A model generated the notes under the pieces. The model saw nothing but the letters and a program-made list of their open reading frames with translations. It had not been told where the DNA came from and did no database searches. The translations under genes and the position numbers were made by a program. Positions 5,135 through 25,133 of a DNA stretch of 32,000 nt are shown here, one piece after another (the stretch's first letter is position 1; every line of letters starts with the position of its first letter). The stretch covers positions 1,620,001 through 1,652,000 of the forward strand of contig OW818675.1 of assembly GCA_942493095.1 (NCBI GenBank), given 5' to 3'. This DNA comes from Candidatus Electronema halotolerans. GTDB taxonomy: Bacteria > Desulfobacterota > Desulfobulbia > Desulfobulbales > Desulfobulbaceae.

Positions 5135-5649
5135 GCTGAGAGCAAAAGGAAATTGTCGTGCCGTCCTGCATCGGAAGCAGGGCACAGGTGCAGTTTACCA
5201 GCAGGAAGGCAAAGAGGCAATGCAAAACACAAGAACTTGCCGCTGAGGAAAAAGAACAGGATTTCAGTCTGCTGCCTTTGGACAGCACCGCCTTTTTCAG
5301 AAAAGACCGTGCTGTCCGTCTGAACTCCCAGTTCTCTTTTTCTTTTACAAAACAGCGTGTTGCTGAACGCCTCCGGCAGGAAGACGGAACAAGGCCTGTT
5401 CTTCAGCAGACGGCCCGGCAGGATTCATTTCACCAGCAATGGCAAAAAAATCGGGAAGATATTTCAAGGCCTGACAGCCCTGCCATCAGCACCCTTCCTT
5501 GCGCCTTCGCACGGCCCGTTCGTTTCGCTGTGAAGTCTGACTTTACAGTGGTGTTCTCAGAAGAAATATGCTATCCTGATGGGCACGTGTTATATACTGT
5601 ACTGTTATCTCTGGTTAAAGGTTGCACCCTGTTGAGGAGGGGCTATTTC

Positions 5650-5871
5650 ATGCAGTTCAACGCCATCATTGAGCATGACCAAGACGGCTGGTATGCGTAT
5701 GTCCCTTCCTTGCAAGGCTGCGTGAGCCAAGGCGACACGCTGGAAGAGGTGCTTGCCAATATCAAAGAGGCCGTCGAGCTGTACTTGGAAGACATGGACG
5801 AGCAGGAGAAGGAAAGCCTTTCCAAATGCAGCTATCTTATAGCTCCCATTCAGATTGCAGCGCATGTCTAA
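5650..5871 (+). CDS. hicB: HicB-family antitoxin (UPF0150-type)
   Basis: MQFNAIIEHDQDGWYAYVPSLQGCVSQGDTLEEVLANIKEAVELYLEDM matches the classic HicB N-terminal fold pattern (..GGY.A.VP.L.GC.SQG.T.EEA..N..EA...). A GAGGAGG Shine-Dalgarno sequence lies 9 nt upstream of the ATG at 5650. The longer track ORF from 5158 is an upstream read-in. Confidence 0.85.
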   Translation: MQFNAIIEHDQDGWYAYVPSLQGCVSQGDTLEEVLANIKEAVELYLEDMDEQEKESLSKCSYLIAPIQIAAHV

Positions 5872-6070
5872 GAAGTGGCCGCGTCTGACTGCGCAGGAGG
5901 CGGAAAAGCTGCTGCTGGACAAAGGATTCGAGTTGTCCCGGCAGAAAGGCAGTCACCGAGTGTACCGCAAGGACAGCTGCCGCATGGTCATTCCGCACCA
6001 TCAAGGAAAAACGCTGCATCCGAAAATCATCAGAGAGCTGTTCGATCTGCTGCTTGATGCCACAAAGTGA
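5864..6070 (+). CDS. hicA: HicA-family mRNA interferase toxin
   Basis: MSKKWPRLTAQEAEKLLLDKGFELSRQKGSHRVYRKD...VIPHHQGKTLHPKIIRELFDLL shows the HicA/YcfA pattern (GSH...vP.H.gK.l..g....I). The ATG at 5864 overlaps the hicB stop by 8 nt (ATGTCTAA). Confidence 0.85.
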   Translation: MSKKWPRLTAQEAEKLLLDKGFELSRQKGSHRVYRKDSCRMVIPHHQGKTLHPKIIRELFDLLLDATK

Positions 6071-6112: not shown

Positions 6113-7279
6113 CTACCTCACCTTCCCCAGCCTCTCCCTCGACTCCTCATTCTTTGCCAGCCGGTTACGCAGCTCCTCCAGCTTGGCCCGCTCCTTCTCC
6201 ACCACATCCGCCGGGGCATTGGCAAGGAACTTCTCATTGCCGAGCTTGCCGCGCACCCGCTGCAAGTCCTGCTCCAGAGTCTTACGCTCGCGGGCCAGCT
6301 TGTCCAACTCCGCATCCACGTCAATCAGCTCCTTGAGCGGCACGACCACCTCCACCCCGCTGACCAAGCTGTGCGCCGCATCGTCCGGCACCGCGCCTGA
6401 TTCTGCAATCTCCAGCGTCTCAGCGCGGGTCATGGCGCAGACAGAGCCGCTGAACGACTGAAGCAGCTCGCGCTTGGCTGCGTCAGCACAGATCAGGCTG
6501 ACATGCAGCTTCGCGCTCGGATGCACGTTGGCCTCGCTGCGGATGGTGCGCACCGCTGTGATGATCTCCATAAGGAGCTGCATGGACTGCTCGGTCTCGG
6601 CATCCTGCCACGCCGGCTTGGCCTCTGGGAATGACTCAAGCATGATCGTGCCGCGTTCGCCCGGCAGTTGGCTCCAGATTTCCTCAGTAACGAACGGGCA
6701 GATCGGGTGGAGGAGCTTGAGAATGTGCTCCAGCACACAGAGGAGCACGCCCCGCGCCTCCTCGCGCTTGGCAGTGTCATCGCTGAACAAATCCGCCTTG
6801 ATCCACTCCACGTACCAGTCGCAGAACTCATGCCAAGTGAACTGGTAGATGGCCGAGGCGATCAGGTTGAAGTCATAGCCGTCCAATGCCTTGCGCACGT
6901 CGCGGATGGTGGCGTTGGTGCGGCTCAATATCCAGCGGTGCGGCAGGGCCAGCTTGCCCGGTTCGTCCGCCACCGCAACAATGTCCGGCTCGCTCTCCTT
7001 GATGTGCATCTGGGCGAAGCGGGCCGCGTTCCACAGCTTGTTGATGAAGCGGCGGTAGCCGTCGATGCGCTCCTCGTCCATCTTGATTTCACGCCCTTGC
7101 GCAGCGAAAGCGGTCAGGGTGAAGCGGAAAGCATCGGTGCCGTACTGGGCGATCATGTCGAGCGGGTCGATCACATTGCCCGTTGATTTGGACATCTTTT
7201 TGCCGTGCTTGTCGCGCACCAAGGCGTGCAAATACACGTCGCGGAACGGCACCTCGTCCATGAAGTGGAGGAGCATCAT
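6113..7279 (-). CDS. 5'-truncated valyl-tRNA synthetase paralogue (C-terminal 388 aa: KMSKS loop, anticodon-binding domain, C-terminal coiled coil). The ORF is intact; it may be a relic pseudogene.
   Basis: It aligns without gaps to residues about 523-911 of the full valS ORF at a constant offset of 6283 nt. I count about 33 aa substitutions in 388 by hand, and roughly 90% nt identity. The catalytic Rossmann and editing domains are absent. Its ATG overlaps the stop of the upstream TPR gene (TGATG). Confidence 0.7.
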   Translation of the reverse strand: MMLLHFMDEVPFRDVYLHALVRDKHGKKMSKSTGNVIDPLDMIAQYGTDAFRFTLTAFAAQGREIKMDEERIDGYRRFINKLWNAARFAQMHIKESEPDIVAVADEPGKLALPHRWILSRTNATIRDVRKALDGYDFNLIASAIYQFTWHEFCDWYVEWIKADLFSDDTAKREEARGVLLCVLEHILKLLHPICPFVTEEIWSQLPGERGTIMLESFPEAKPAWQDAETEQSMQLLMEIITAVRTIRSEANVHPSAKLHVSLICADAAKRELLQSFSGSVCAMTRAETLEIAESGAVPDDAAHSLVSGVEVVVPLKELIDVDAELDKLARERKTLEQDLQRVRGKLGNEKFLANAPADVVEKERAKLEELRNRLAKNEESRERLGKVR

Positions 7280-8241
7280 CAGAGGGATGATTCCTGCCGC
7301 TCTGCCCGCACTTCCTCCAATGCTTTGCGGTCATCCTTCAAATCAGGATGATCGACAGCCTCTTCAATATGCACGGCTTTGCTGATATATTCCTCCGCCT
7401 TGGCAATATCGTCTATATCGTAATATGTGAGGCCAATGTTCCAACAGCTTTCCGCTTCTCCAATCTTATCTCCAACTTCTTTGCGTGTTGCCAAGGCTCG
7501 TTTGTGATATTCTAACGCCTTGGTATAGTTGTTCAATGTACGGAATATTTCGCCGATATTGTTCAATGACGTACCCGCTCCAGCCTTATCGCTTTCTTGT
7601 AAGGTTATATCCAAGTTATAATACGTCAAAGCTGTCTCATAGTCACCTTGCTCATAATAAAGTCTGCCGATGTTGTTCAGAACTATTCCTTCTCCCTTTC
7701 GATCTCCTCCCTTCCGACATATCGTCAAGTCTTGCTCGTAATATTTCAAGGCCAGCTTATGGTTGCCCTGCTGCTGATATATCTCTGCGATGTTGTTTAA
7801 GGTCAATCCTTCACCTTGCCTATCCTCCAGCTCTCGGTCTATCTCAAGGCTTTGTTCATACCACATTAATGCTTTCTCGTGTTCACCGCGCCGCCCACAA
7901 ATGTAGCCGAGATTGTTCAGACACATGCTTTCATTTCTGCGGGCACCTTGCTGTCGGGCCGCATTCAAGTTCATCTCAACGACCGCCATATTTTCTGCCC
8001 AATACCCCTGCTGGTCTAAGTAGGTATTGATTGCTTCAGCTAAGTCATTTACCTCTTGCCACAGCCTGCTAGCCAAGCAGACCTCCAACAACCGCAGGCA
8101 TTGCACTCGCTCCTTATTCAGCCGAGCGTACCCCGCCGCACCACGAGCACTCTCCTTTTCTGCCAATGCAGTATAGTGCGCAGCAAGCCGTTGGTATACT
8201 TCGGTCAGTTCAGCACTTGAAGCAGTATGGTTAGACATCAT
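7279..8241 (-). CDS. TPR-repeat protein, NLR-type sensor arm paralogue B (helical linker plus five 40-aa TPR_12-like repeats)
   Basis: It contains repeats of the form LNNIG.IY..QG.Y..AL.YYEQ.L.I....GD..GEG. The N-terminal 45 aa are nearly identical to the 5' stub at 10747..10879. The start is the ATG at 8241 (or 8238), while the track ORF starts at the TTG at 8247. Confidence 0.85.
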   Translation of the reverse strand: MMSNHTASSAELTEVYQRLAAHYTALAEKESARGAAGYARLNKERVQCLRLLEVCLASRLWQEVNDLAEAINTYLDQQGYWAENMAVVEMNLNAARQQGARRNESMCLNNLGYICGRRGEHEKALMWYEQSLEIDRELEDRQGEGLTLNNIAEIYQQQGNHKLALKYYEQDLTICRKGGDRKGEGIVLNNIGRLYYEQGDYETALTYYNLDITLQESDKAGAGTSLNNIGEIFRTLNNYTKALEYHKRALATRKEVGDKIGEAESCWNIGLTYYDIDDIAKAEEYISKAVHIEEAVDHPDLKDDRKALEEVRAERQESSL

Positions 8242-8265
8242 TCTCAATGGTCTGACTTGAACTCA

Positions 8266-8396
8266 CACTATGGTGTGAAGAAGGGAGACACTACGGTATC
8301 TCCTGTCGAGACACCAAGGTAACTCTCGTGGAGTCACTATGGTAACTCGGAGGGAGACACTACGGTGTCTCTTTGGGAGATATCGTAGTGTCTCCC
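8266..8396. repeat. Three copies of a 20-22-nt palindromic hairpin unit (GGAGACAC-TACG-GTRTCTCC): two direct copies embedded in a 38-nt direct repeat, and one inverted copy
   Basis: Copy A is at 8266..8303 (cactatggtgtgaagaagggagacactacggtatctcc). Copy B is at 8335..8372 (cactatggtaactcggagggagacactacggtgtctc). Copy C, inverted, is at 8375..8396 (gggagatatcgtagtgtctccc). In copy B, gagacac/gtgtctc forms a perfect 7-bp stem with a tacg loop. All copies lie in the 163-nt gap between the two TPR genes. Confidence 0.8.
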
Positions 8397-8404
8397 ACGA
8401 AAGG

Positions 8405-9260
8405 CTATTTCTCTCCAGTCGGCCCCTGTGCCGCCAGCCGTTTTGCTCGCACCCGTTCCAATCCATCGCGGCTATCTACTATATTAGGGCTACCGATGGC
8501 TTCTTCAATCTGTACAGTACGGCTGATGTATTCTTCCGCCTTGGTAAGGTTGTCTATGTCTTCATAGGTGAGGCCGATGTTCCAGCATGTGACCGCTTCT
8601 CCTGCCTTGTCACCCAACTCCCGGCATATTGCCAAGTCTTGTTGATGATACTCCAATGCCTTAGCATGATCACCTTGCGCACGGTAGATCATGGCAATGT
8701 TGGTCAGGGTTGTTCCTGCCCCAATCTTATCGCCAATCTCTTTTACGATAGGCAAGCATTGCTCATAGTATGACAAGGCTTGCTCATTGTCACCTTGTAC
8801 CCTGTAAGTCATACCGATATTATTTATGATCTTACTTTCCCCCTCCCGGTCGCCGATCTCCTGACAGATGCTCAGACTTTGCTGGTATGTCTCCAAGGCC
8901 AGCTCGTACTTGCCCTGTTGATGATAAATCGTTGCAATGCCGGTTAAGGTTGCGCCTTCTGCCGGTCGATAACCAGCGAGGTAGGCGGCAGGCAGGCTTT
9001 GCTCATACCACGCTAATGCCTTATCAAGCTCCCCGCGCCGCCAGCAGGTGTAGCCTAATGTACACAGGCACCAGCTTTCATCCTTACGGTTGTTGCTTTT
9101 TCGGGCCGCAGTCAGACGCATATCAAAAGCGGCCAGCAGCTCTGTCAACCAGCCCTGCCGGTCAAGGTAGATATAAGTTGCACCGACTAAGTATTGCAAC
9201 TCCTGCCACAGCCTGCTTTCAAGGCAACTCTCCATCACCCGCATACACTGCACCCGCTCC
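8405..9260 (-). CDS. TPR-repeat sensor arm paralogue A, 3' portion of a gene split by the IS66-family insertion (5'-truncated, probably not expressed as such)
   Basis: Track ORF 8405..9253 begins VQCMRVMESCLESRLWQEL. This continues the 5' stub (..GYARLDKER) exactly as paralogue B reads (..GYARLNKERVQCLRLLEVCLASRLWQEV). Five TPR_12-like repeats follow. Confidence 0.85.
9253..9260. repeat. Target-site duplication, left copy (CCCGCTCC)
   Basis: The 8-bp sequence cccgctcc directly abuts IRL. An identical 8-mer abuts IRR at 10747..10754. Confidence 0.9.
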
Positions 9261-10746
9261 GTAACTGATCACAGGGTGTCTCTAAAAAACACTGGCGCTT
9301 GGCATCGCAACTGGATAAATTGTGAGCAGTAATTTTTTCCGCAGGAGAAAGCTGTGACCGCCCCGTTCCATCGTGAAAATTTTGAGATAAGCGAGGAAGA
9401 CCTTGCCGCTACACCTCCTGCGGTGCGGAAGCTGCTGTCTTTTTTGATCGCTGAGGTAACGCGGCTGAGAAAACGGGTCGAAGAGCTTGAGGCGAAACTC
9501 GGCGAAGATTCCTCGAACTCGAACAGGCCGCCTTCTTCCGACTCTCCGTTTACAGAAAAACGGCAGAGAGATCAGGCGGGGAAGCCCCGGAAAAAGCGGC
9601 GTGGATATCGTCAGGAGCTGATGCCGCCGACAGAAACGCAAAAAATGTATCCTTCCGCCTGCTCCTGCGGTTGCGGCAAATTCAAAAACATACGGTCATA
9701 TTATACGCATCAGCATATTGAACTGCCGGAAATCGTGATGCAGGTCAGGCATTTCCTTCTTTATAAAGGTGAATGCGCCGCCTGCGGCAAAACCGTCAGA
9801 GGCTGTGTTCCCGATGAATTCAGAACCGGTTTCGGGGCGCGGTTCACCGCGCTGGTTGCCGAACTGAGCGGCATGGACGGCAGCAGCCGGGGAACTGTGC
9901 GGAAGTTCATCCGTTCCGTGCTCGGCGTTCCTATCAGTGCCGGGGCGGTGCAGAAGATCATTGACCGGGCTTCGGCGGCTGTCGCGCCGCACTATGAGGC
10001 CGTCCGGGCTGCCGTCACAAGCGGGGATATCGGACATGTTGATGAAACAACGTGGAAAACTGGCGGCAGGCTGCGCTGGTTATGGGTTATGGCGAACCGG
10101 CAGGCCGCGTTCTTCATGATTCATCCGAAACGCTCTAAGGAAGCCTTTGAAGAACTGATCGGCGCTTGGAACGGTATTCTCATCAGCGACGGGTACAACG
10201 TGTACCAAAAATGGGTCGGCAAGCGGCAGACTTGCCTCGCGCATCTTATCCGCCGGGCAGACGGCCTTGCGGAGCGCGCTGACCCTGAACTGGCTGCCTG
10301 CGGCAAATGGGCCGCTGCGGAACTGCGGCGGCTCTGCCGCATGGCGAAAGACCCGCCGACCAAAGGTGAACAGTCCGCATTTTATGCCCGGCTCTGCCGA
10401 CTTATCCTGCGCTGGCGCGATTGCGACAGTGATGCGGGGAGGTTTGTCCGTCATATTGAGAAGGAAATGGCTGCGTTGTTCACTTTTCTGCTCGAAGAAG
10501 GCGTAGAACCGACAAATAATCCAGCGGAACGGATGCTCCGCTTCGGCGTGCTGTGGCGCAAACGGAGTCAGGGCACTGACAGCGACAAGGGAAACCGCTG
10601 GGTTGAACGAATCCTTTCCCTCCGGCAGACATGCCTGCTTCGGGGAAAATCCACTTTCGAGGTGCTCACCGAGGCCATGCGCTGCTATTTCAGAGGACAG
10701 ATGCCGGATTTAAGCTGGGTCTGAGCGGTACCCTGTGATCGCTTAC
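9261..10746 (+). mobile_element. IS66-family insertion sequence, single-ORF (ISBst12-like) type, 1486 bp, apparently intact
   Basis: The terminal inverted repeats are GTAACTGATCACAGGGT (9261..9277) and the reverse complement of 10730..10746, GTAAGCGATCACAGGGT (15/17 match, with the GTAA ends typical of IS66). The element is flanked by an 8-bp direct repeat and contains one complete transposase ORF. Confidence 0.92.
9354..10724 (+). CDS. IS66-family transposase (TnpC-type DDE)
   Basis: 456 aa. It has an N-terminal leucine-zipper-like helix (LIAEVTRLRKRVEELEAKL) followed by NSNRPPSSDSPF, a Cys cluster (CSCGCGKF...CAACGK), and then a DDE core (HVDETTW...ISDGY...NNPAERMLR). This is the hallmark IS66 TnpC layout. 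It uses a GTG start. Confidence 0.93.
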   Translation: MTAPFHRENFEISEEDLAATPPAVRKLLSFLIAEVTRLRKRVEELEAKLGEDSSNSNRPPSSDSPFTEKRQRDQAGKPRKKRRGYRQELMPPTETQKMYPSACSCGCGKFKNIRSYYTHQHIELPEIVMQVRHFLLYKGECAACGKTVRGCVPDEFRTGFGARFTALVAELSGMDGSSRGTVRKFIRSVLGVPISAGAVQKIIDRASAAVAPHYEAVRAAVTSGDIGHVDETTWKTGGRLRWLWVMANRQAAFFMIHPKRSKEAFEELIGAWNGILISDGYNVYQKWVGKRQTCLAHLIRRADGLAERADPELAACGKWAAAELRRLCRMAKDPPTKGEQSAFYARLCRLILRWRDCDSDAGRFVRHIEKEMAALFTFLLEEGVEPTNNPAERMLRFGVLWRKRSQGTDSDKGNRWVERILSLRQTCLLRGKSTFEVLTEAMRCYFRGQMPDLSWV

Positions 10747-10754
10747 CCCGCTCC
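10747..10754. repeat. Target-site duplication, right copy (CCCGCTCC)
   Basis: Identical to 9253..9260 and directly abuts IRR. Confidence 0.9.
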
Positions 10755-10879
10755 TTATCTAATCTGGCATATCCCGCCGCACCGCGAGCACTTTCCTTTT
10801 CTGCCAATGCAGTATAATGTGCAGCAAGCCGCTGGGATACTCCAGTCAATTCGTCACTTGACGCAGCATATTCAGGCAT
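10747..10879 (-). pseudogene. 5' stub of TPR sensor arm A (first about 44 codons), severed by the IS66-family element
   Basis: MPEYAASSDELTGVSQRLAAHYTALAEKESARGAAGYARLDKER then runs into IS sequence. The ATG at 10879 overlaps the NB-ARC stop by 8 nt (ATGCCTGA). Removing 9261..10754 restores one 336-codon ORF collinear with paralogue B. Confidence 0.88.
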
Positions 10880-11999
10880 TGACAGTGCCCTCCCACATGG
10901 TTTTGGCATGAACTGTCAGAAGCGCGTGCATCTGGAAGCGCACCTCGCCATCCTCCTGATACGGCTCCAGCAGCCCGCGCCTCTCCAGCTCGCGGATTGT
11001 TGAACGCGGATTCTCCACTCCCCATGCCGCTGCTATGGCAGCAAGATCAAAGGTTGCCGGTTTCGGCGCAAAGACTCCCAAAAAGGCAAACTGCTTCCGG
11101 GTCAGCACATCAAGACGGTCGGTGCTTTTCCGCAGGAGAGCCGCTACGGTAGGTGTAGTCTGGCCGGATAAATCAGTGCGGTCTGCCGGTGCAGATTCTT
11201 TCAGGAGGCGGGTGCCTTCAGCCAGCTCGTCCAGCAAGTCACTGACTCCCCAGCCCAGCGGAGCTTCAGCGGCAAGCAGGCTGCCGGCAACCTTCAGAGC
11301 CAAGGGCAGCCCTTCCAGTTCCTGCACCAACCGCCGCACTCCTTGCTCATCTTGCGCCACCGAATCAGGCGAAAGCTGGCGGATCAACTCGATGGAATCC
11401 TCTTCCGACAGCACCAGCAGCCGGTACACTGACTTGTCCGGCAAACCCAGCTTCCGCGCCACGTCAGGTTCGCGGGTGGTGAGCAGCGTCCGGCACGACT
11501 GCCCGCCGACAAGGAAGGGCTGCGCATCGGCAGCCTGCCACACGTCATCTATGATCAGCAGCATCCGGCGGTCGCGCAGCAGCCCGGCAAGTCGGTTCTG
11601 CCGTTCTTCAATGCGCTGATACCGCTGCGGATCATCACCAAATGCAAGCAGCCATTGCCCCAGTCCTGCCAAAGGATTCGGCGACATACCCAAGGCCGTC
11701 CACAGCACACCGTCCGGGAACGCCTTCTTCACTTCGGCATCATGGGCTATTGCCGCCGCCAGCGTGGTCTTGCCGATTCCGGGCCAGCCCCGCACGCTGG
11801 TAATCAAGGTTGCTGACGGCTTGCCAAAGAGACGCTGCCGTAGCTCGGCCATGTCATTGTCGCGTCCGATGAACAGGTTGGGTGCTGCTGGCAGCAGGCC
11901 GGGAAACGAAACGGTTGCTTTATTGGAAACCCTCTGATTGACGGTGCCCTGTTCTTCGACAATATTGACGATACTGTTGCTGATATTGGTGTCACTCAT
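10872..11999 (-). CDS. NB-ARC (STAND/NLR-type) P-loop NTPase core with no effector or repeat domain
   Basis: 375 aa carrying the full ordered NB-ARC motif set. These are the Walker A motif GWPGIGKTTLA (aa 71-81), Walker B LLIIDDVW, RNBS-B-like RTLLTTR, GLPL (LEGLPLALKVAGSLL), a winged-helix FAFLGVFAP, and an MHD-like QMHALL (Ala in place of Asp). Only about 45 aa precede the NTPase domain. Confidence 0.9.
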   Translation of the reverse strand: MSDTNISNSIVNIVEEQGTVNQRVSNKATVSFPGLLPAAPNLFIGRDNDMAELRQRLFGKPSATLITSVRGWPGIGKTTLAAAIAHDAEVKKAFPDGVLWTALGMSPNPLAGLGQWLLAFGDDPQRYQRIEERQNRLAGLLRDRRMLLIIDDVWQAADAQPFLVGGQSCRTLLTTREPDVARKLGLPDKSVYRLLVLSEEDSIELIRQLSPDSVAQDEQGVRRLVQELEGLPLALKVAGSLLAAEAPLGWGVSDLLDELAEGTRLLKESAPADRTDLSGQTTPTVAALLRKSTDRLDVLTRKQFAFLGVFAPKPATFDLAAIAAAWGVENPRSTIRELERRGLLEPYQEDGEVRFQMHALLTVHAKTMWEGTVNA

Positions 12000-12017
12000 A
12001 ATATGCCTCGTTCTGAC

Positions 12018-12371
12018 TTACAGGCCAAACAGTTTGGCGCAATAAATGGCCGCCTGTGACAGCATATTGCCAACCTTGACGACAGCAGCGACGGTCTTGG
12101 GCAACTGCGCAATAATCATTTCGGCATTCTTCAGACTGCTCAATGCCTTCACAGGCTCATTTTTGACCTGCTGCTCCGCTTCATCCAGCTCATCCCGCAC
12201 CTTCGTCTGCACATCTTCCGGCAGTGCCGCTGTTTCGGTTTTGATTGCCGCTATCAGATTCAGCAAATCCTCAAATGAAGGTTGTTGTGTGCTATTGATG
12301 ATCTGATTGATTACGTCGATCTTTTCAGCCACAGTAACCGTGCTGCCGGTGATGTTGAATGTGTTGTTCAT
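12018..12371 (-). CDS. Small (117 aa) hypothetical protein: N-terminal N/T/I/V-rich motif, acidic helical middle, hydrophobic/amphipathic C-terminal tail; candidate effector or adaptor of the NB-ARC cassette
   Basis: A strong AAGGAG Shine-Dalgarno sequence lies 7 nt upstream of the ATG. The gene starts 24 nt after the valS stop and ends 18 nt before the NB-ARC start. I recognise no family. The N-terminus resembles the NB-ARC N-terminus (see findings). Confidence 0.7.
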   Translation of the reverse strand: MNNTFNITGSTVTVAEKIDVINQIINSTQQPSFEDLLNLIAAIKTETAALPEDVQTKVRDELDEAEQQVKNEPVKALSSLKNAEMIIAQLPKTVAAVVKVGNMLSQAAIYCAKLFGL

Positions 12372-12395: not shown

Positions 12396-13562
12396 TTATT
12401 TCACCGTCCCCAACCTCCCCCTCGACTCTTCGTTCTTGGCCAGCTTGGTCTCCAGCTCCTCCAGCTTGGCCCGCTCCTTCTCCACCACATCCGCCGGGGC
12501 ATTGGCAAGGAACTTCTCATTGCCGAGCTTGCCGCGCACCCGCTGCAAGTCCTGCTCCAGCACCTTGCGCTCGCGGGCCAGCTTGTCCAGCTCCGCGTCC
12601 ACATCAATCAGCTCCTTGAGCGGCACGACCACCTCAATCCCGCTGACCAAGCTATGCGCCGCATCGTCCGGCACTGCGCCGGACTCGACAATGTCTAAGC
12701 TTTCAGCGCGGGTCATGGCGCAGATCGAGCCGCTGAACAACTGAAGCAGCTCCCGCTTGGCCGGATCAGGGCAGATCAGGCTGACATGCAGCTTCGCGCT
12801 CGGATGCACATTCGCCTCACTGCGGATAGTGCGCACAGCCGTGATGATCTCCATGAGGAGCTGCATGGCCTGCTCGGTCTCGGCATCCTGCCACGTCGGC
12901 TTGGCCTCCGGGAAGGACTCCAGCATGATCGTGCCGCGCTGGCCCGGCAGTTGACTCCAGATTTCCTCAGTAACGAACGGGCAGATCGGGTGGAGCATCT
13001 TCAGGATATTCTCCAGCACACAGAGAAGCACGCCCCGCGCCTGCTCGCGTTTGGCAGTATCATCGCTGAACAAATCGGCCTTGATCCACTCCACGTACCA
13101 GTCGCAGAACTCATGCCAGGTGAACTGGTAGATGGCCGAGGCGATCAGGTTGAAATCATAGCCATCCAATGCCTTGCGCACGTCACGGACAGCGGCATCA
13201 GTGCGGCTGAGTATCCAGCGGTGCGGCAGAGCCAAGGCCGCCGGATTGTCTGTGACCGCCGTGATGCCCGGCTCGCTCTCCTTGATGTGCATCTGGGTGA
13301 AGCGGGCTGCGTTCCACAGCTTGTTGATGAAGCGGCGGTAGCCGTCGATACGCTCCTCGTCCATCTTGATTTCCCGGCCCTGGGCGGCAAAGGCGGTCAG
13401 GGTGAAGCGGAAAGCGTCGGTGCCGTACTGGGCGATCATGTCAAGCGGATCAATGACGTTGCCGGTGGACTTGGACATCTTCTTGCCGTGCTTGTCGCGC
13501 ACCAAGGCGTGCAGATACACATCGTGAAAGGGCACCTCGTCCATGAAGTGCAGGCCCATCAT
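12396..13562. repeat. Direct-repeat copy 2 of the valS 3' end (its partner is 6113..7279)
   Basis: The alignment is gapless at a constant offset of 6283 nt at both ends. Homology stops within a few nt of the stop codon on one side and at the ATGATG run on the other. Confidence 0.9.
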
Positions 13563-15086
13563 CATCATCCGCGCCACCCAGAAGAAGAGGATGTCAAAGC
13601 TGGTGATCAGCACCGAGGTGGGATAGAAGGTGGCCAGTTCTTTGGTCTGGTCCGGCCAGCCAAGGGTGGAGAAGGGCCAGAGCGCGGAAGAAAACCACGT
13701 GTCGAGCACGTCATGCTCCTGCTCAATCTGGCTGCTGCCGCACTTGCCGCAGACGGTCGGGTCAAGCGAGACCACGGTCATCTCACCGCAGTCAGCACAA
13801 GTCCAAGCCGGGATGCGGTGGCCCCACCATATCTGCCGCGAAATGCACCAGTCGCGGATGTTGTCCATCCAGGCGTAGAAGGTATTGTACCACGTGTCCG
13901 GGTAGAGCTTGATCCGGCCCTCGCGCACTGCGGCAACCGCCTTGTCTGCCAGCGGGCGCACTGAGACAAACCACTGCTTGGAGGTGGTTGGCTCCACGAC
14001 CGTGGCGCAGCGGTAGCACTTGCCGACCGCGTGCTCATAGTCCTCGATCTTGTCGAGGAAGCCAAGTTCGGCCAAGTCCTTGACAATCTGCTCTCGGCAG
14101 GCGAAGCGGTCCATGCCAGCGTACTTTCCGGCGTTCTCGTTCATGATGCCGTGCTCGTCCATGATCTTGATCCGCTCCAGATTATGGCGCAGGCCGATCT
14201 CGTAGTCGTCGCGGTCGTGCGCAGGCGTGACCTTGAGCGCGCCCGTGCCGAAATCACGCTGGACATGGTGATCAAGCACCACCGGAATGATGCGGTCAAC
14301 AATGGGCAGGCGGATGCCGATTTTGTCCAGCCCGGCATAGCGTTCATCATCAGGATGCACGGCCACCGCCGTGTCGCCGAGCATGGTCTCAGGCCGGGTG
14401 GTGGCGATCACCACCGAGCCGGAGCCGTCCGAGTATGGATAGCGGAGATGATAGAGCTTGCCGTGGGTCGGGTCGTGCTCCACCTCGTCGTCAGACAAAG
14501 CGGTCTTGCAGCGCGGGCACCAGTTGACGATGTAGTCGCCCTTGTAGATCAGGCCCTCGTTGTAGAGGCGGACAAAGACCTCGCGCACCGCCTTGGACAG
14601 ACCCTCGTCCATCGTGAACCGCTCGCGGTCCCAGTCGCAGGACGCGCCCATCCGCTTGAGCTGCTTGATGATCGTGCCGCCCTTGTCGGTGCGCCATTGC
14701 CAGACCCGCTCAATGAACTTGTCCCGGCCCAGCTCGTGGCGGTTGGTCTTCTCAGCAGCAAGCTGCCGCTCCACCACGTTCTGGGTGGCAATGCCCGCGT
14801 GGTCAGTGCCCGGCACCCAGAGGGTGTTGTCGCCTTTCATCCGGTGATAGCGGGTCAGCAAATCCTGAAGCGTGTTGTTGAGGGCGTGGCCGATATGGAG
14901 CACACCGGTCACGTTCGGCGGCGGAATGACAATGGAAAAGGCAGGGCGGCCCGGCTCCATTTGTGCGCTGAAGGTCTTGCCCTCAAGCCAGTATTGATAC
15001 CAGCGTTCTTCAACCTCCTCGAATTCATAGGCTTTGGGCAGGTCGTATTTGGCGGCGCACTGCGGCGTGGTCGTCTCGTTGCTCAT
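12396..15086 (-). CDS. valS: Valine--tRNA ligase (full length)
   Basis: It has the class I HIGH motif (PNVTGVLHIGHALN), a KMSKS motif, an editing (CP1) insertion, an anticodon-binding domain and a C-terminal coiled coil. I trimmed the start to MSNETTTPQ.. (ATG at 15086); the track ORF extends 15 codons further to 15131. Confidence 0.97.
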   Translation of the reverse strand: MSNETTTPQCAAKYDLPKAYEFEEVEERWYQYWLEGKTFSAQMEPGRPAFSIVIPPPNVTGVLHIGHALNNTLQDLLTRYHRMKGDNTLWVPGTDHAGIATQNVVERQLAAEKTNRHELGRDKFIERVWQWRTDKGGTIIKQLKRMGASCDWDRERFTMDEGLSKAVREVFVRLYNEGLIYKGDYIVNWCPRCKTALSDDEVEHDPTHGKLYHLRYPYSDGSGSVVIATTRPETMLGDTAVAVHPDDERYAGLDKIGIRLPIVDRIIPVVLDHHVQRDFGTGALKVTPAHDRDDYEIGLRHNLERIKIMDEHGIMNENAGKYAGMDRFACREQIVKDLAELGFLDKIEDYEHAVGKCYRCATVVEPTTSKQWFVSVRPLADKAVAAVREGRIKLYPDTWYNTFYAWMDNIRDWCISRQIWWGHRIPAWTCADCGEMTVVSLDPTVCGKCGSSQIEQEHDVLDTWFSSALWPFSTLGWPDQTKELATFYPTSVLITSFDILFFWVARMMMMGLHFMDEVPFHDVYLHALVRDKHGKKMSKSTGNVIDPLDMIAQYGTDAFRFTLTAFAAQGREIKMDEERIDGYRRFINKLWNAARFTQMHIKESEPGITAVTDNPAALALPHRWILSRTDAAVRDVRKALDGYDFNLIASAIYQFTWHEFCDWYVEWIKADLFSDDTAKREQARGVLLCVLENILKMLHPICPFVTEEIWSQLPGQRGTIMLESFPEAKPTWQDAETEQAMQLLMEIITAVRTIRSEANVHPSAKLHVSLICPDPAKRELLQLFSGSICAMTRAESLDIVESGAVPDDAAHSLVSGIEVVVPLKELIDVDAELDKLARERKVLEQDLQRVRGKLGNEKFLANAPADVVEKERAKLEELETKLAKNEESRGRLGTVK

Positions 15087-15274
15087 GGTCTGGCGGAAGA
15101 AAATAGAAAAAAAGTGCAGTAACGGCTTCACGCAGCGTCTGCTTAACCGCAGAAAGATGCATGAAGCCGACTGCTGGACAGATTGTCAAGTAAACAAACA
15201 GAGTTCCTGTAGATTCACAGGCAGAAAGATAACGACACGGCTGCGCTGATGCAGCTGCAATGGCTGTGTCCGCC

Positions 15275-23992: not shown

Positions 23993-24062
23993 GATCAGCA
24001 GGCACGCTTGGAAGGTGACTGCACCTGATAATTAATAATTGGCCAAAAATAGGATAATTGAA

Positions 24063-25133
24063 ATGGCATTCTATCTAAGAAAATCTGTAAAGATAGGACC
24101 AGTAAGATTTAACTTGTCTAAAAGTGGTATTGGCACATCAGTCGGTATTAAGGGTTTTAGAGTAGGTGTTCGTCCAAACGGAAGAAGTTATTTACATGCC
24201 GGCGGGTATGGGATTTATTATCGGCAAGAATTAGGAAGTGGCGGTCGTGCTCGCACAAATGATGTGCCTCCCCCAAGAGAAACAGAAATTGTTCATTCCT
24301 CTCATCCTGATGCCGTCCAGTATAATTCTGCAAGTTCACAGGAACTAACATCAAAATCAAGAAAAGAACTCATCTCAACTCTTAATGACTCATATAAAGG
24401 ATTCAGATTAGATTATTTGTGTGGCTGCTTATTCATTATCCTCTCAATTATTTTTTTTAAGAATAACAATATCGCTGGAATAACTGTAGCAATTATAGGA
24501 GTGTTAGCTACAGCCGCCGTAGCTGTATGGGAGTCTAAGAGACGCACAGTCACAATCACATATGAATTCGAGGATGGAAAAGGAGAGCCTTTCAAGAAAC
24601 TTATATCTGCTTTCAACAAGTTAGCCTCAAATAGCAATGTCTGGGCCTTGATAGATTCTCGAAATATTCATGGCTCTCATGAGTCAAAATTGAATGCAGG
24701 TGCAAGTAATATTATCAGCAGATCAGATGTTCAAATTGGTGAAGGAAAACCACCTTGGGTTAACACAAATATTGATGTGCCTGTAATGAAAGCAAGACAG
24801 CAAACATTATATATGTTGCCAGATGGAATTCTTGTCTACGACAGTAAAGGAGTTGGATTTGTTGAGTATGACACTGTTTCTATATATGACAACACCACAA
24901 GGTTTATTGAAGAGCGTCCACCGCGTGACGCGAAAGTCGTCGACCGTACATGGAAACATCCAAATAAAAAAGGTGGTCCTGATCGAAGATTCAAAGATAA
25001 TTACGAAATTCCAATTTGTTTGTATGGAGAGCTAAAAATTCAATCAGATTCAGGGCTGTTCTTTTTATTAATGACATCGAAACATGATTCTCCATTGGGC
25101 TTTAAAAGAGAGTTCTCTGAAGTATTAAAATAA
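24063..25133 (+). CDS. DUF4236-like N-terminal domain, 2 TM helices, and an unknown C-terminal domain of about 190 aa (AT-rich orphan)
   Basis: MAFYLRKSVKIGPVRFNLSKSGIGTSVGIKGFRVGVRPNGRSY matches the DUF4236 signature as I remember it (F.FRKS.K.GP.r.NlSksG.s.S.G..G). AGGA lies 8 nt upstream of the ATG at 24063. The hydrophobic stretch is LCGCLFIILSIIFF...GITVAIIGVLATAAVAVW. Sampled lines give 30-37% G+C. Confidence 0.7.
   Translation: MAFYLRKSVKIGPVRFNLSKSGIGTSVGIKGFRVGVRPNGRSYLHAGGYGIYYRQELGSGGRARTNDVPPPRETEIVHSSHPDAVQYNSASSQELTSKSRKELISTLNDSYKGFRLDYLCGCLFIILSIIFFKNNNIAGITVAIIGVLATAAVAVWESKRRTVTITYEFEDGKGEPFKKLISAFNKLASNSNVWALIDSRNIHGSHESKLNAGASNIISRSDVQIGEGKPPWVNTNIDVPVMKARQQTLYMLPDGILVYDSKGVGFVEYDTVSIYDNTTRFIEERPPRDAKVVDRTWKHPNKKGGPDRRFKDNYEIPICLYGELKIQSDSGLFFLLMTSKHDSPLGFKREFSEVLK

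Follow-up and report, generated by a model that had tools for sequence, protein, structure and literature searches.

Receptors of the NLR/STAND type, whether from bacteria, fungi, plants or animals, are commonly regarded as single polypeptides whose sensor keeps the NTPase auto-inhibited in cis. A 32,000-nt stretch of the Candidatus Electronema halotolerans genome (the window) raises the question of whether such a receptor can also be encoded in pieces, as the first-pass annotation of this DNA had read it as an effector-less NB-ARC core followed by two separate, paralogous TPR arms. The gene order, coordinates and minus-strand orientation given there held for every element, and the locus is laid out as follows.

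Layout of the cassette and the state of its arms

12396..15131, minus strand: valS, intact; one copy of a direct repeat is formed by its final 1,167 nt (12396..13562)
12018..12371, minus strand: ORF of the small partner protein, 117 aa
10872..11999, minus strand: NB-ARC core, 375 aa (Pfam NB-ARC, E=1.4e-26)
10747..10879, minus strand: 5′ segment of TPR-A, head residues 1-44, ATG at 10879
9261..10746, plus strand: IS66-family insertion sequence inside TPR-A (inverted repeats, target duplication, transposase match)
8405..9260, minus strand: 3′ segment of TPR-A, stop at 8405; the rejoined protein has 326 aa
8242..8404, minus strand: REP-like array, about six palindromic hairpin units of 23 nt in tandem
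7279..8241, minus strand: TPR-B, 320 aa, intact, an HD2-like head plus TPR_12 repeats (E=6.9e-36)
6113..7279, minus strand: duplicated valS 3′ fragment, 388 codons, intact ORF, repeat of 12396..13562

A HicAB toxin-antitoxin module adjoins this locus, and RelE, HipA and AbiEii are found as neighbours at related loci.

The four motifs of the NB-ARC protein can be read directly from the sequence (GWPGIGKTT, LLIIDDVW, GLPLAL and FQMHALL), giving the Walker A, Walker B, GLPL-type and MHD-type motifs of a STAND NTPase in an NBD-HD1-WHD module. A short N-terminal motif precedes this module and the protein terminates 4 residues past the winged-helix match, with the TPRs encoded by separate ORFs instead of by the same polypeptide. 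Foldseek matched it to Apaf-1, NRC and ZAR1-type NB-ARC structures and to the STAND-TPR entry 6MFV. Among NCBIfam models it most resembles the NOD module of AfsR and is also similar to that of FxSxx_TPR, though all NCBIfam scores in this comparison with single-chain STANDs were far under their cut-offs. The first-pass annotation had called for profile and defence-system searches; the former recovered NB-ARC, and TPR_12 in both TPR-B and the rejoined TPR-A, but PADLOC recognised no defence system at the locus and no Avs match for the four proteins. The split architecture also differs from that of Avs, where effector, STAND and sensor share a single polypeptide.

TPR-A is currently inactivated by the insertion sequence and is not an intact ORF. 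The element is 1,486 bp long and interrupts the gene between 10879..10747 and 9260..8405, with inverted repeats of the form GTAAsyGATCACAGGGT and a perfect 8-bp target duplication, GGAGCGGG, at 9253-9260 and 10747-10754. It encodes a single transposase of 456 aa (9354..10724) that matches DDE_Tnp_IS66 (PF03050, E=1.1e-34) and NF033517 (E=9.5e-72, 242 bits, cut-off 180), and thus has the DDE transposase, GTAA-type terminal inverted repeats and 8-bp duplication of the IS66 family. Removing the element and one duplication copy restores a TPR-A ORF of 326 aa (TPR_12, E=2.4e-38). With TPR-A recently knocked out in this way, TPR-B is the only intact arm here.

Of the genes described as one tight array, the small-protein gene is separated from the NB-ARC ATG at 11999 by an 18-nt gap containing GAGG, and the TPR-A ATG (10879) overlaps the NB-ARC TGA by 8 nt as ATGCCTGA. 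TPR-B, however, lies beyond the 163-nt spacer that follows the TPR-A stop (8405). This spacer is strongly structured, as proposed (MFE −74.8 kcal/mol, z = −10 against shuffles), and is built of tandem 23-nt palindromes of the GAGACAC-CGTA-GTGTCTC type. The same hairpin arrays are found 3′ of the arm in four relatives (L001, L002, L011 and L016), where the REP-like array marks the operon 3′ end. One such array also occurs in a polysaccharide-export intergenic region at an unrelated locus (L151). The array has no Rfam match and no T-tract terminator, and read-through is possible since its hairpin units lack a U-tract. Expression of TPR-B is uncertain, as it lies past this array and no promoter was predicted for it. 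Nor is TPR-B simply the next gene of the operon, as its stop codon runs straight into a duplicated valS fragment at a TGATGATG microhomology. The valS 3′ duplication forms a 1.17 kb direct repeat that brackets the cassette, its copies (the fragment and 12396..13562) differing by a dS of 0.42 and a dN of 0.05 (omega 0.12). The cassette occupies a site at the valS 3′ end that is a hot spot for insertions in cable-bacteria-like genomes.

It is conceivable, though we consider it unlikely, that the family is functional and this copy a decaying remnant, with TPR-A dead, TPR-B stranded by the recombination that also duplicated valS, and the two-arm layout here of no functional meaning. The insertion with its perfect target duplication would fit this, as would the position of TPR-B past an array that closes the operon of four relatives, its fusion to valS at microhomology, the lack of a predicted promoter and the single arm of the closest relatives. 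The small-protein, NB-ARC and TPR-B ORFs are nevertheless intact, with catalytic motifs present, the omega between the two arms (0.22) shows long-term constraint on both, and elsewhere in cable bacteria such loci have runs of 3 to 5-6 arms; the possible read-through also speaks against stranding.

The arms as candidate sensors

TPR-A and TPR-B share 58% of their residues overall, with identity at 82% in the first 45 residues and 55% in the TPR body, and the head is the most constrained part of the arm (dN 0.096 vs 0.36). The two are old paralogues under purifying selection (omega 0.22). As had been claimed, they begin with the helical segment found after the winged helix in relatives of the rarer, fused kind, and TPR-B, like second and later arms elsewhere, starts independently at the equivalent position; for TPR-B the annotated ATG is at 8241, while alignment with other arms prefers that at 8238. 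A single-chain AF2 model of NB-ARC plus TPR-B reached a pLDDT of 86.7 and a pTM of 0.78, the only weak stretches being the disordered N-terminus, a short internal loop at 272-275 and the natural junction at residues 373-377, though this docking model is not independent of the fused homologues that its alignment contained. In Foldseek the concatenated model aligned with 6MFV over 692 columns and with Apaf-1 over 465-520 columns, past residue 375 into the head.

The TPR bodies have diverged much further than the heads while staying under purifying selection, which is the pattern expected of specificity determinants, although in other phyla heads are only slightly more conserved than bodies within a locus. 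That the arms are alternative sensors is plausible, and the recurrence of one NB-ARC gene followed by several arms fits the idea. Alternatively, the extra arms may serve as inhibitory or antitoxin-like subunits, take part in a mixed hetero-oligomer or provide a reservoir for recombination between the conserved heads, which we judge improbable to much the same degree as decay of this copy. Cis-linked STANDs such as 6MFV, the top Foldseek match, use the sensor domain to auto-inhibit the NOD, the 131-nt stretches that the heads have in common (81% identity) could recombine, and arm number differs between close relatives, with broken arms common. The purifying selection on bodies so much more diverged than their heads speaks, indirectly, for the sensor reading.

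A small protein probably coupled to the switch

Describing the core as effector-less proved misleading, as the upstream small protein has a motif that co-varies with the NB-ARC N-terminus. Residues ~1-30 of this protein form a disordered, N/Q/T/V/I-rich motif and residues 33-115 a four-helix bundle whose C-terminal hydrophobic helix is conserved (AF2 pLDDT <50 at 1-19 and >90 at 33-115). Its motif aligns with the NB-ARC N-terminus with a Smith-Waterman score of 51, which 0 of 2000 shuffles reached (maximum 46). Pairing and co-variation were seen in four classes (window/L001, L011, the HetE-N loci L012/L014, and L177), and cross-comparison of the first three was block-diagonal. The observed score was reached by 0/2000 or 0/500 shuffles except in L001 (5/2000), and pairing in L002 is weak (224/2000). 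Homologues of the small protein were found only among cable-bacteria-like sequences; it has no Pfam match above cut-off, no HetE-N match and no significant structural relative. From the motif pairing, it is likely a coupled effector.

Motif-based amyloid signalling between adjacent genes has experimental support in the Bab/Agp antiphage pair (Ibarlosa et al. 2024, bioRxiv 10.1101/2024.11.07.622273) and in BASS motifs (Dyrka et al. 2020, bioRxiv 10.1101/2020.01.06.895854). Like Bell/BASS-NLR and Bab/Agp, the window pairs a small helical protein with a collinear, adjacent NLR gene through a common N/Q/G/V/I-rich motif of ~25 residues, N-terminal on the NB-ARC protein. Sister loci at the same valS site (L012, L014 and L015) carry canonical HetE-N proteins with the matching motif at the C-terminus, as in Bell systems. 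The window protein, in contrast, has its motif at the N-terminus and its hydrophobic helix at the C-terminus, an inverted polarity, and its NLR partner lacks repeats of its own. The motif, a putative amyloid element that would template its partner, has the composition given above and is predicted to be disordered (pLDDT <50). In the EAD/bDLD adaptor-coupled conflict systems of Kaur et al. (2020, PMC7159879; 2021, PMC8195603), a small module present on both partners likewise links a core NTPase to a stand-alone effector, and AP-ATPases with TPRs in the same polypeptide are described there. Close homologues of the window NB-ARC bear EAD7 or bDLD1, and the family, like these systems of multicellular prokaryotes, is enriched in filamentous lineages; here, however, the coupling element is a short disordered motif and not a globular EAD.

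With moderate confidence, we propose from sequence and models that the cassette encodes a three-part, multi-subunit NLR/STAND of NB-ARC switch, free-standing arms and motif-coupled executioner protein. The switch (NBD-HD1-WHD) would bear only its N-terminal signalling motif of ~30 residues, and the HD2-like head of each arm, followed by a divergent TPR_12 solenoid, would dock on it in trans, mirroring the cis contact of this segment in fused relatives. The arm would keep the NB-ARC closed and sense a ligand, probably a phage or non-self protein, whose binding would lead to nucleotide exchange and oligomerisation. Clustered NB-ARC motifs could then template the identical small-protein motif through amyloid or other homotypic signalling, and the helical bundle, as downstream executioner, would kill or arrest the cell. 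Additional arm genes would broaden recognition by one switch-and-effector pair.

A role other than antiviral defence, such as kin or non-self recognition, developmental cell death in filaments or MalT/AfsR-like regulation, seems to us less likely than either alternative above. The AfsR similarity, the concentration of the family in filamentous or multicellular lineages and the action of fungal counterparts in allorecognition (bioRxiv 10.1101/2020.01.06.895854) would all suit such a role. The locus, however, lacks a DNA-binding domain, the N-termini of homologues (TIR, HNH, trypsin-like, NERD, bDLD1 and EAD7) are typical of conflict systems, toxin-antitoxin modules adjoin this locus and several others, and an amyloid-signalling pair related to this one acts against phage (bioRxiv 10.1101/2024.11.07.622273).

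How general the split is, and what it would mean

The first-pass annotation took the split to be a built-in feature and pointed to related genomes as a check. A survey of these found the split gene in 77 of 79 species-level genome loci. The best NB-ARC homologues all lack TPRs (120/120), and in 141 of the 150 best representatives, drawn from 1.84 billion proteins, the C-terminus lies at most 12 residues from the winged-helix match. The accompanying statement that such proteins are normally single polypeptides fails here, since 94-97% of this clade is of the split form; fused NB-ARC-TPR relatives exist at ~50% identity and are rarer. Among the 65 loci with enough downstream sequence, 41 have an arm in tandem downstream and 24 have none in tandem, while 14 have no arm at all inside the flanks. 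At least two arms are found in tandem at 11 of these loci and anywhere within the ±10 kb flanks at 18, with up to 5-7 arms per NB-ARC. Spacing is tight, the NB-ARC-to-arm junction falling within −8 to +15 nt in 37 of 48 cases, and the 8-nt overlap is kept in eight cable-bacterial loci (L001, L002, L011, L012/13, L014/15 and L016). A recent frameshift or sequencing error in a single NB-ARC-TPR gene is hardly credible: although the NB-ARC/TPR-A overlap is out of frame, such that a 1-nt indel would fuse both, and fused relatives are known, this is effectively refuted by the conserved overlap, the TPR-less homologues that are the rule across phyla and the independent starts of the arms. The locus is a real multi-gene variant of a bacterial NOD-like immune receptor.

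Compared with single-chain STANDs (PH0952-type PDB 6MFV, AfsR, the FxSxx-system TPR protein and Avs), the order of NBD-HD1-WHD, HD2-like segment and TPR solenoid is the same, but the polypeptide is interrupted after the WHD, ahead of the HD2-like head, and 1-7 head-plus-TPR units are separate genes. Several interchangeable recognition modules also serve one signalling or catalytic module in plant sensor/helper NLR networks and in Type I restriction HsdS. The arrangement here is not homologous to these, and the sensors of plant networks are complete NLRs whereas those of the window would be bare repeat arms. Although the split layout is widespread, we found no description of it in the literature. 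More tentatively, at somewhat less than even confidence, this large, phylum-spanning NLR clade may be a trans-assembled receptor with an effector coupled through a short templating motif and an expandable array of interchangeable, separately encoded HD2-TPR sensor subunits, its cable-bacterial cassettes exchanged at the valS-3′ hot spot.

If this is true, surveys that require NB-ARC/NACHT and repeats in one protein would undercount these receptors, for example in cable bacteria and many Chloroflexota, and motif-templated (amyloid-like) coupling would come to include a new effector polarity and filamentous bacteria of the Desulfobulbaceae type. If the sensor is commonly a separate, multi-copy subunit, auto-inhibition and activation would become dissectable in trans, and sensor specificity could be swapped without altering the switch. 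The family would then be a bacterial counterpart of those receptor networks where many sensors feed into one signalling module, a multi-specificity innate receptor built from a single NTPase.

Cassette layout and the interrupted arm

The cassette is a minus-strand array that follows an intact valS gene, with these features:

15131..12396, minus strand: valS, intact, first in the minus-strand gene order
12371..12018, minus strand: ORF of the 117-aa small protein
11999..10872, minus strand: NB-ARC protein of 375 aa, after an 18-nt gap from the small protein
ATG at 10879, minus strand: TPR-A, whose start overlaps the NB-ARC stop as ATGCCTGA
9261..10746, transposase on the plus strand: IS66-family element of 1,486 bp, interrupting TPR-A
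8404..8242, minus strand: spacer of 163 nt between TPR-A and TPR-B
8241..7279, minus strand: TPR-B, the intact arm after the spacer
7279..6113, minus strand: second valS copy, a 388-codon 3′ fragment directly abutting the TPR-B stop

The gene order, 18-nt gap, NB-ARC/TPR-A overlap and structured spacer described in the first-pass annotation agree with the ORF coordinates and the predicted folding of the spacer (MFE −74.8 kcal/mol, z = −10), and HMM searches strongly support its domain assignments, with a Pfam match to NB-ARC at E=1.4e-26 and TPR_12 matches at E=2.4e-38 (TPR-A) and 6.9e-36 (TPR-B). The Walker A, Walker B, GLPL-type and MHD-type motifs of the NB-ARC protein are complete. Cable bacteria (Candidatus Electronema, Electrothrix) are the closest named relatives. 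Housekeeping genes mrdA, mreC and mreB and then HicBA lie on one flank, and aminotransferase, hybrid kinase and helicase genes on the other. The HicB/HicA toxin-antitoxin pair occupies 5158-6070, next to the valS fragment on its downstream side; its HicB ORF as listed (237 aa) is over-extended, with the HicB-like match covering residues 169-220 only. Elsewhere in the window, G+C falls sharply to 0.39 (vs about 0.58) at 24001-25133, coinciding with a 364-aa DUF4236 protein (24039..25133) whose gene is probably a separate horizontal acquisition.

The IS66-family element encodes one 456-aa transposase, has GTAA-type inverted repeats and is flanked by a perfect 8-bp target duplication, GGAGCGGG; once it is removed, a TPR-A ORF of 326 aa is regained. 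The insertion point is directly past the conserved 44-residue head of TPR-A, and a 74-aa head-only ORF remains (10909..10685) that is in principle still translatable. TPR-B is the sole intact arm in this genome; a scan for promoters and terminators predicted no promoter for it, and its expression here is uncertain.

A conserved split and its arm arrays

A frameshift or pseudogene origin of the split is rejected by comparison with homologues: all 120 best NB-ARC homologues (48-100% identity; 265-612 aa long) lack a TPR domain. When phmmer was run exhaustively against 1.84 billion representatives it gave 1,332 matches (E<=1e-30); among the best 150 of these, 141 end within 12 residues of the winged-helix match and only 9 have a C-terminal TPR extension. 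Scanning one genome per species gave 79 loci, mainly from Anaerolineae and Chloroflexia, with other hosts in Acidobacteriota, Planctomycetota, KSB1, Verrucomicrobia, Actinomycetota, a cyanobacterium, Brocadia and Ca. Electronema, and the NB-ARC is split in 77 of them. Every cable-bacterial relative keeps the 8-nt NB-ARC/TPR-A overlap. The view that the split is built in is therefore upheld, and the single polypeptide that the first-pass annotation took to be the normal layout is not the norm in this clade. When NB-ARC and TPR-B were concatenated into one query, the fused proteins retrieved matched it at only 29-51% identity. Programmed frameshifting or read-through as a general route to a fused protein was also rejected for this clade, as the two genes overlap in different reading frames with no obvious slippery site; stop-codon read-through may occur at in-frame junctions in other clades.

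Of 48 NB-ARC-to-arm junctions, 37 fall within −8..+15 nt. Across phyla (loci L016-L094) the NB-ARC terminates in ...HAKSLLTEE* and the arm opens with MPSLREAxLRHA; all three stop codons occur at these junctions. In a separate count of 37 junctions whose gap is 0-30 nt, 24 preserve the reading frame (binomial p about 9e-5, uncorrected for shared ancestry). Because most such junctions are in frame and fused relatives retain an internal Met (..TEDGPGMPTLREA..), one sense/stop change may suffice for fission or fusion.

In every arm, whether it stands first or further along an array, residue 1 is the start of the stretch found after "MHALL..HA.SLL" in fused relatives (RHAxHY...LY.QGG...LFD.E..NI..GQ.WA), so the earlier claim that both arms open with the post-winged-helix linker extends to all arms. 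An AF2 model of NB-ARC and TPR-B joined in one chain, from an alignment that included fused homologues, reached pLDDT 86.7 and pTM 0.78, with low confidence at the N-terminal 32 residues, loop 272-275 and residues 373-377, the last being the exact natural NB-ARC/arm break. Foldseek aligned this model with the STAND-TPR protein 6MFV (692 columns) and with Apaf-1 over 465-520 columns, beyond NB-ARC and into the head, which is why the head is predicted to be HD2-like. In the cable-bacteria clade the first 45 arm residues are 53-87% identical to TPR-A (69-87% minus one arm) and the TPR bodies 45-58%. TPR-A and TPR-B are old paralogues, with saturated dS, and both are under purifying selection (omega 0.22); constraint is strongest in the head (dN 0.096 vs 0.36 in the body). 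Head and body conservation differ only weakly in multi-arm loci of other phyla.

Arms were counted in the 65 split loci whose downstream sequence runs to 1.5 kb or more. A tandem downstream arm is present in 41 of them and a tandem series of two to five arms in 11; when the whole of the ±10 kb flanks is considered, 18 loci contain two or more arms, with a maximum of seven. The close relatives L012 and L014 carry three and five or six arms, respectively, and L007, which is more distant, carries four on the downstream side and three on the upstream side. At the Anaerolineae locus L003/L017 (6001-9900), a DUF4062 gene overlaps a split NB-ARC and is followed by a 908-aa EAD10-HATPase-NB-ARC, also without TPRs, and then by arm genes; the two switches appear to share one arm set.

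The small protein and its shared motif

The NB-ARC protein had been called effector-less, a description that does not really hold. Its N-terminus, TNISNSIVNIVEEQGTVNQRVSN, resembles that of the small protein, TFNITGSTVTVAEKIDVINQIINS (Smith-Waterman score 51, reached by 0/2000 shuffles), and the shared motif co-varies across loci. In the cable-bacteria-like locus L011 the small-protein homologue has another motif in common with its NB-ARC, ..HGD.[FY][ED]S.GG.Q....KD.A..IN. (score 82, 0/2000 shuffles), and in L012/L014 the C-terminal motif of a HetE-N (Bell-like) protein equals the N-terminal motif of its NB-ARC, SGSGA..QNGG...G......GNV.G.I.M (scores 114-116). The cross-comparison matrix is block-diagonal for the window/L001, L011 and HetE-N motif classes. 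In other cable-bacterial genomes (L012/L013, L014, L015) the NB-ARC core remains 81-83% identical although it is paired with a different effector module. At these loci the HetE-N protein, with a canonical C-terminal BASS-type amyloid-signalling motif, replaces the small four-helix-bundle protein, at L015 in the same position downstream of valS.

Two further comparison loci were examined. At L177 (1930-3789), a 619-aa pentapeptide-repeat protein with a long multi-TM region has a C-terminal motif matching the downstream NB-ARC N-terminus (score 56, 0/500 shuffles), making it a candidate for a different membrane effector coupled by the same principle; at L178, comparing the upstream gene with the NB-ARC N-terminus found no motif match. 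N-termini of other clade members carry EAD7, bDLD1, TIR, HNH, trypsin-like, NERD or HTH domains. The motif-pairing logic is that of amyloid-signalling pairs (bioRxiv 10.1101/2020.01.06.895854), although the effector polarity in the window is inverted; Bab/Agp is an antiphage pair of this kind (bioRxiv 10.1101/2024.11.07.622273).

AF2 predicts residues 1-30 of the small protein to be disordered and 33-115 to form a confident four-helix bundle. Foldseek against PDB returned generic four-helix bundles only (best E 0.55) and no specific structural relative, Pfam, PADLOC and NCBIfam gave sub-threshold matches only (bpX0, PDC-M14B), and a homologue search found only four close relatives.

Genomic context and a proposed trans-assembled NLR

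About six 23-nt palindromic units, GAGACAC-NNNN-GTGTCTC, make up the spacer, and such units occur in arrays of 3-9 copies (window 8242-8404; L001 7946-8100; L011 4083-4295; L016 5684-5885; L151 ~1300-1420). The units match no Rfam family and lack a U-tract, and an Rfam search of window 5-16 kb gave nothing relevant. A metagenome scan returned 82 stretches, almost all single chance matches, with a true array only at L151, an unrelated metagenomic locus where it lies between convergent genes of a polysaccharide-export cluster. Because that region is intergenic and unrelated, the element resembles a dispersed repeat of REP type more than a signal specific to the cassette, and it is probably a REP/BIME-like element carried by cable-bacteria-type genomes. 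In L001, L002, L011 and L016 a single arm is followed by the array (3-9 units) and then a short valS 3′ remnant, which puts TPR-B beyond the ancestral end of the operon.

The cassette is flanked by a direct repeat consisting of the final 1,167 nt of valS (6113-7279 and 12396-13562; about 89% nt identity), and the TPR-B/valS′ junction has TGATGATG microhomology. Both copies lie at about the same distance (82-86%) from the valS genes of relatives, which marks neither as the native one; their dS of 0.42, dN of 0.05 and omega of 0.12 indicate that they diverged while both were working genes, one being xenologous. The repeat, with the remnants at the four relative loci, points to a valS-linked insertion/exchange hot spot, at which effector module (small protein or HetE-N) and arm number vary between strains. 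In the simplest reading, we infer, a segment comprising a valS 3′ end and the cassette integrated Campbell-type or was swapped in by recombination. In the metagenomic relative L001 (3872-5437), only a 3′ fragment of valS (521 aa) stands upstream of the cassette, with unrelated nucleotidyltransferase and acetyltransferase genes before it, and for this reason the valS-3′-plus-cassette unit may have moved as a block.

The literature searched held neither a description of split NB-ARC/TPR arm arrays nor a paper on the NLRs of cable bacteria, though such absence is no proof. Repeats in the same polypeptide are stated or assumed in Kaur et al. 2020 (PMC7159879) and 2021 (PMC8195603), Dyrka et al. 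2020 (bioRxiv 10.1101/2020.01.06.895854), Ibarlosa et al. 2024 (bioRxiv 10.1101/2024.11.07.622273) and a 2026 Nature STAND survey. None of these was found to describe separately encoded TPR arm arrays with NB-ARC cores or to deal with cable-bacterial NLRs.

We propose a trans-assembled NLR, in which an arm would dock through its HD2-like head and hold the NB-ARC closed until a ligand bound by the TPR body allows it to oligomerise. Once clustered, the NB-ARC N-terminal motifs would serve as a template for the matching motif on the small protein, whose helical bundle may execute cell death or arrest, and several arms would widen the recognition range of one switch. These functional steps are proposals; the split NB-ARC/arm layout itself is common and conceptually useful.
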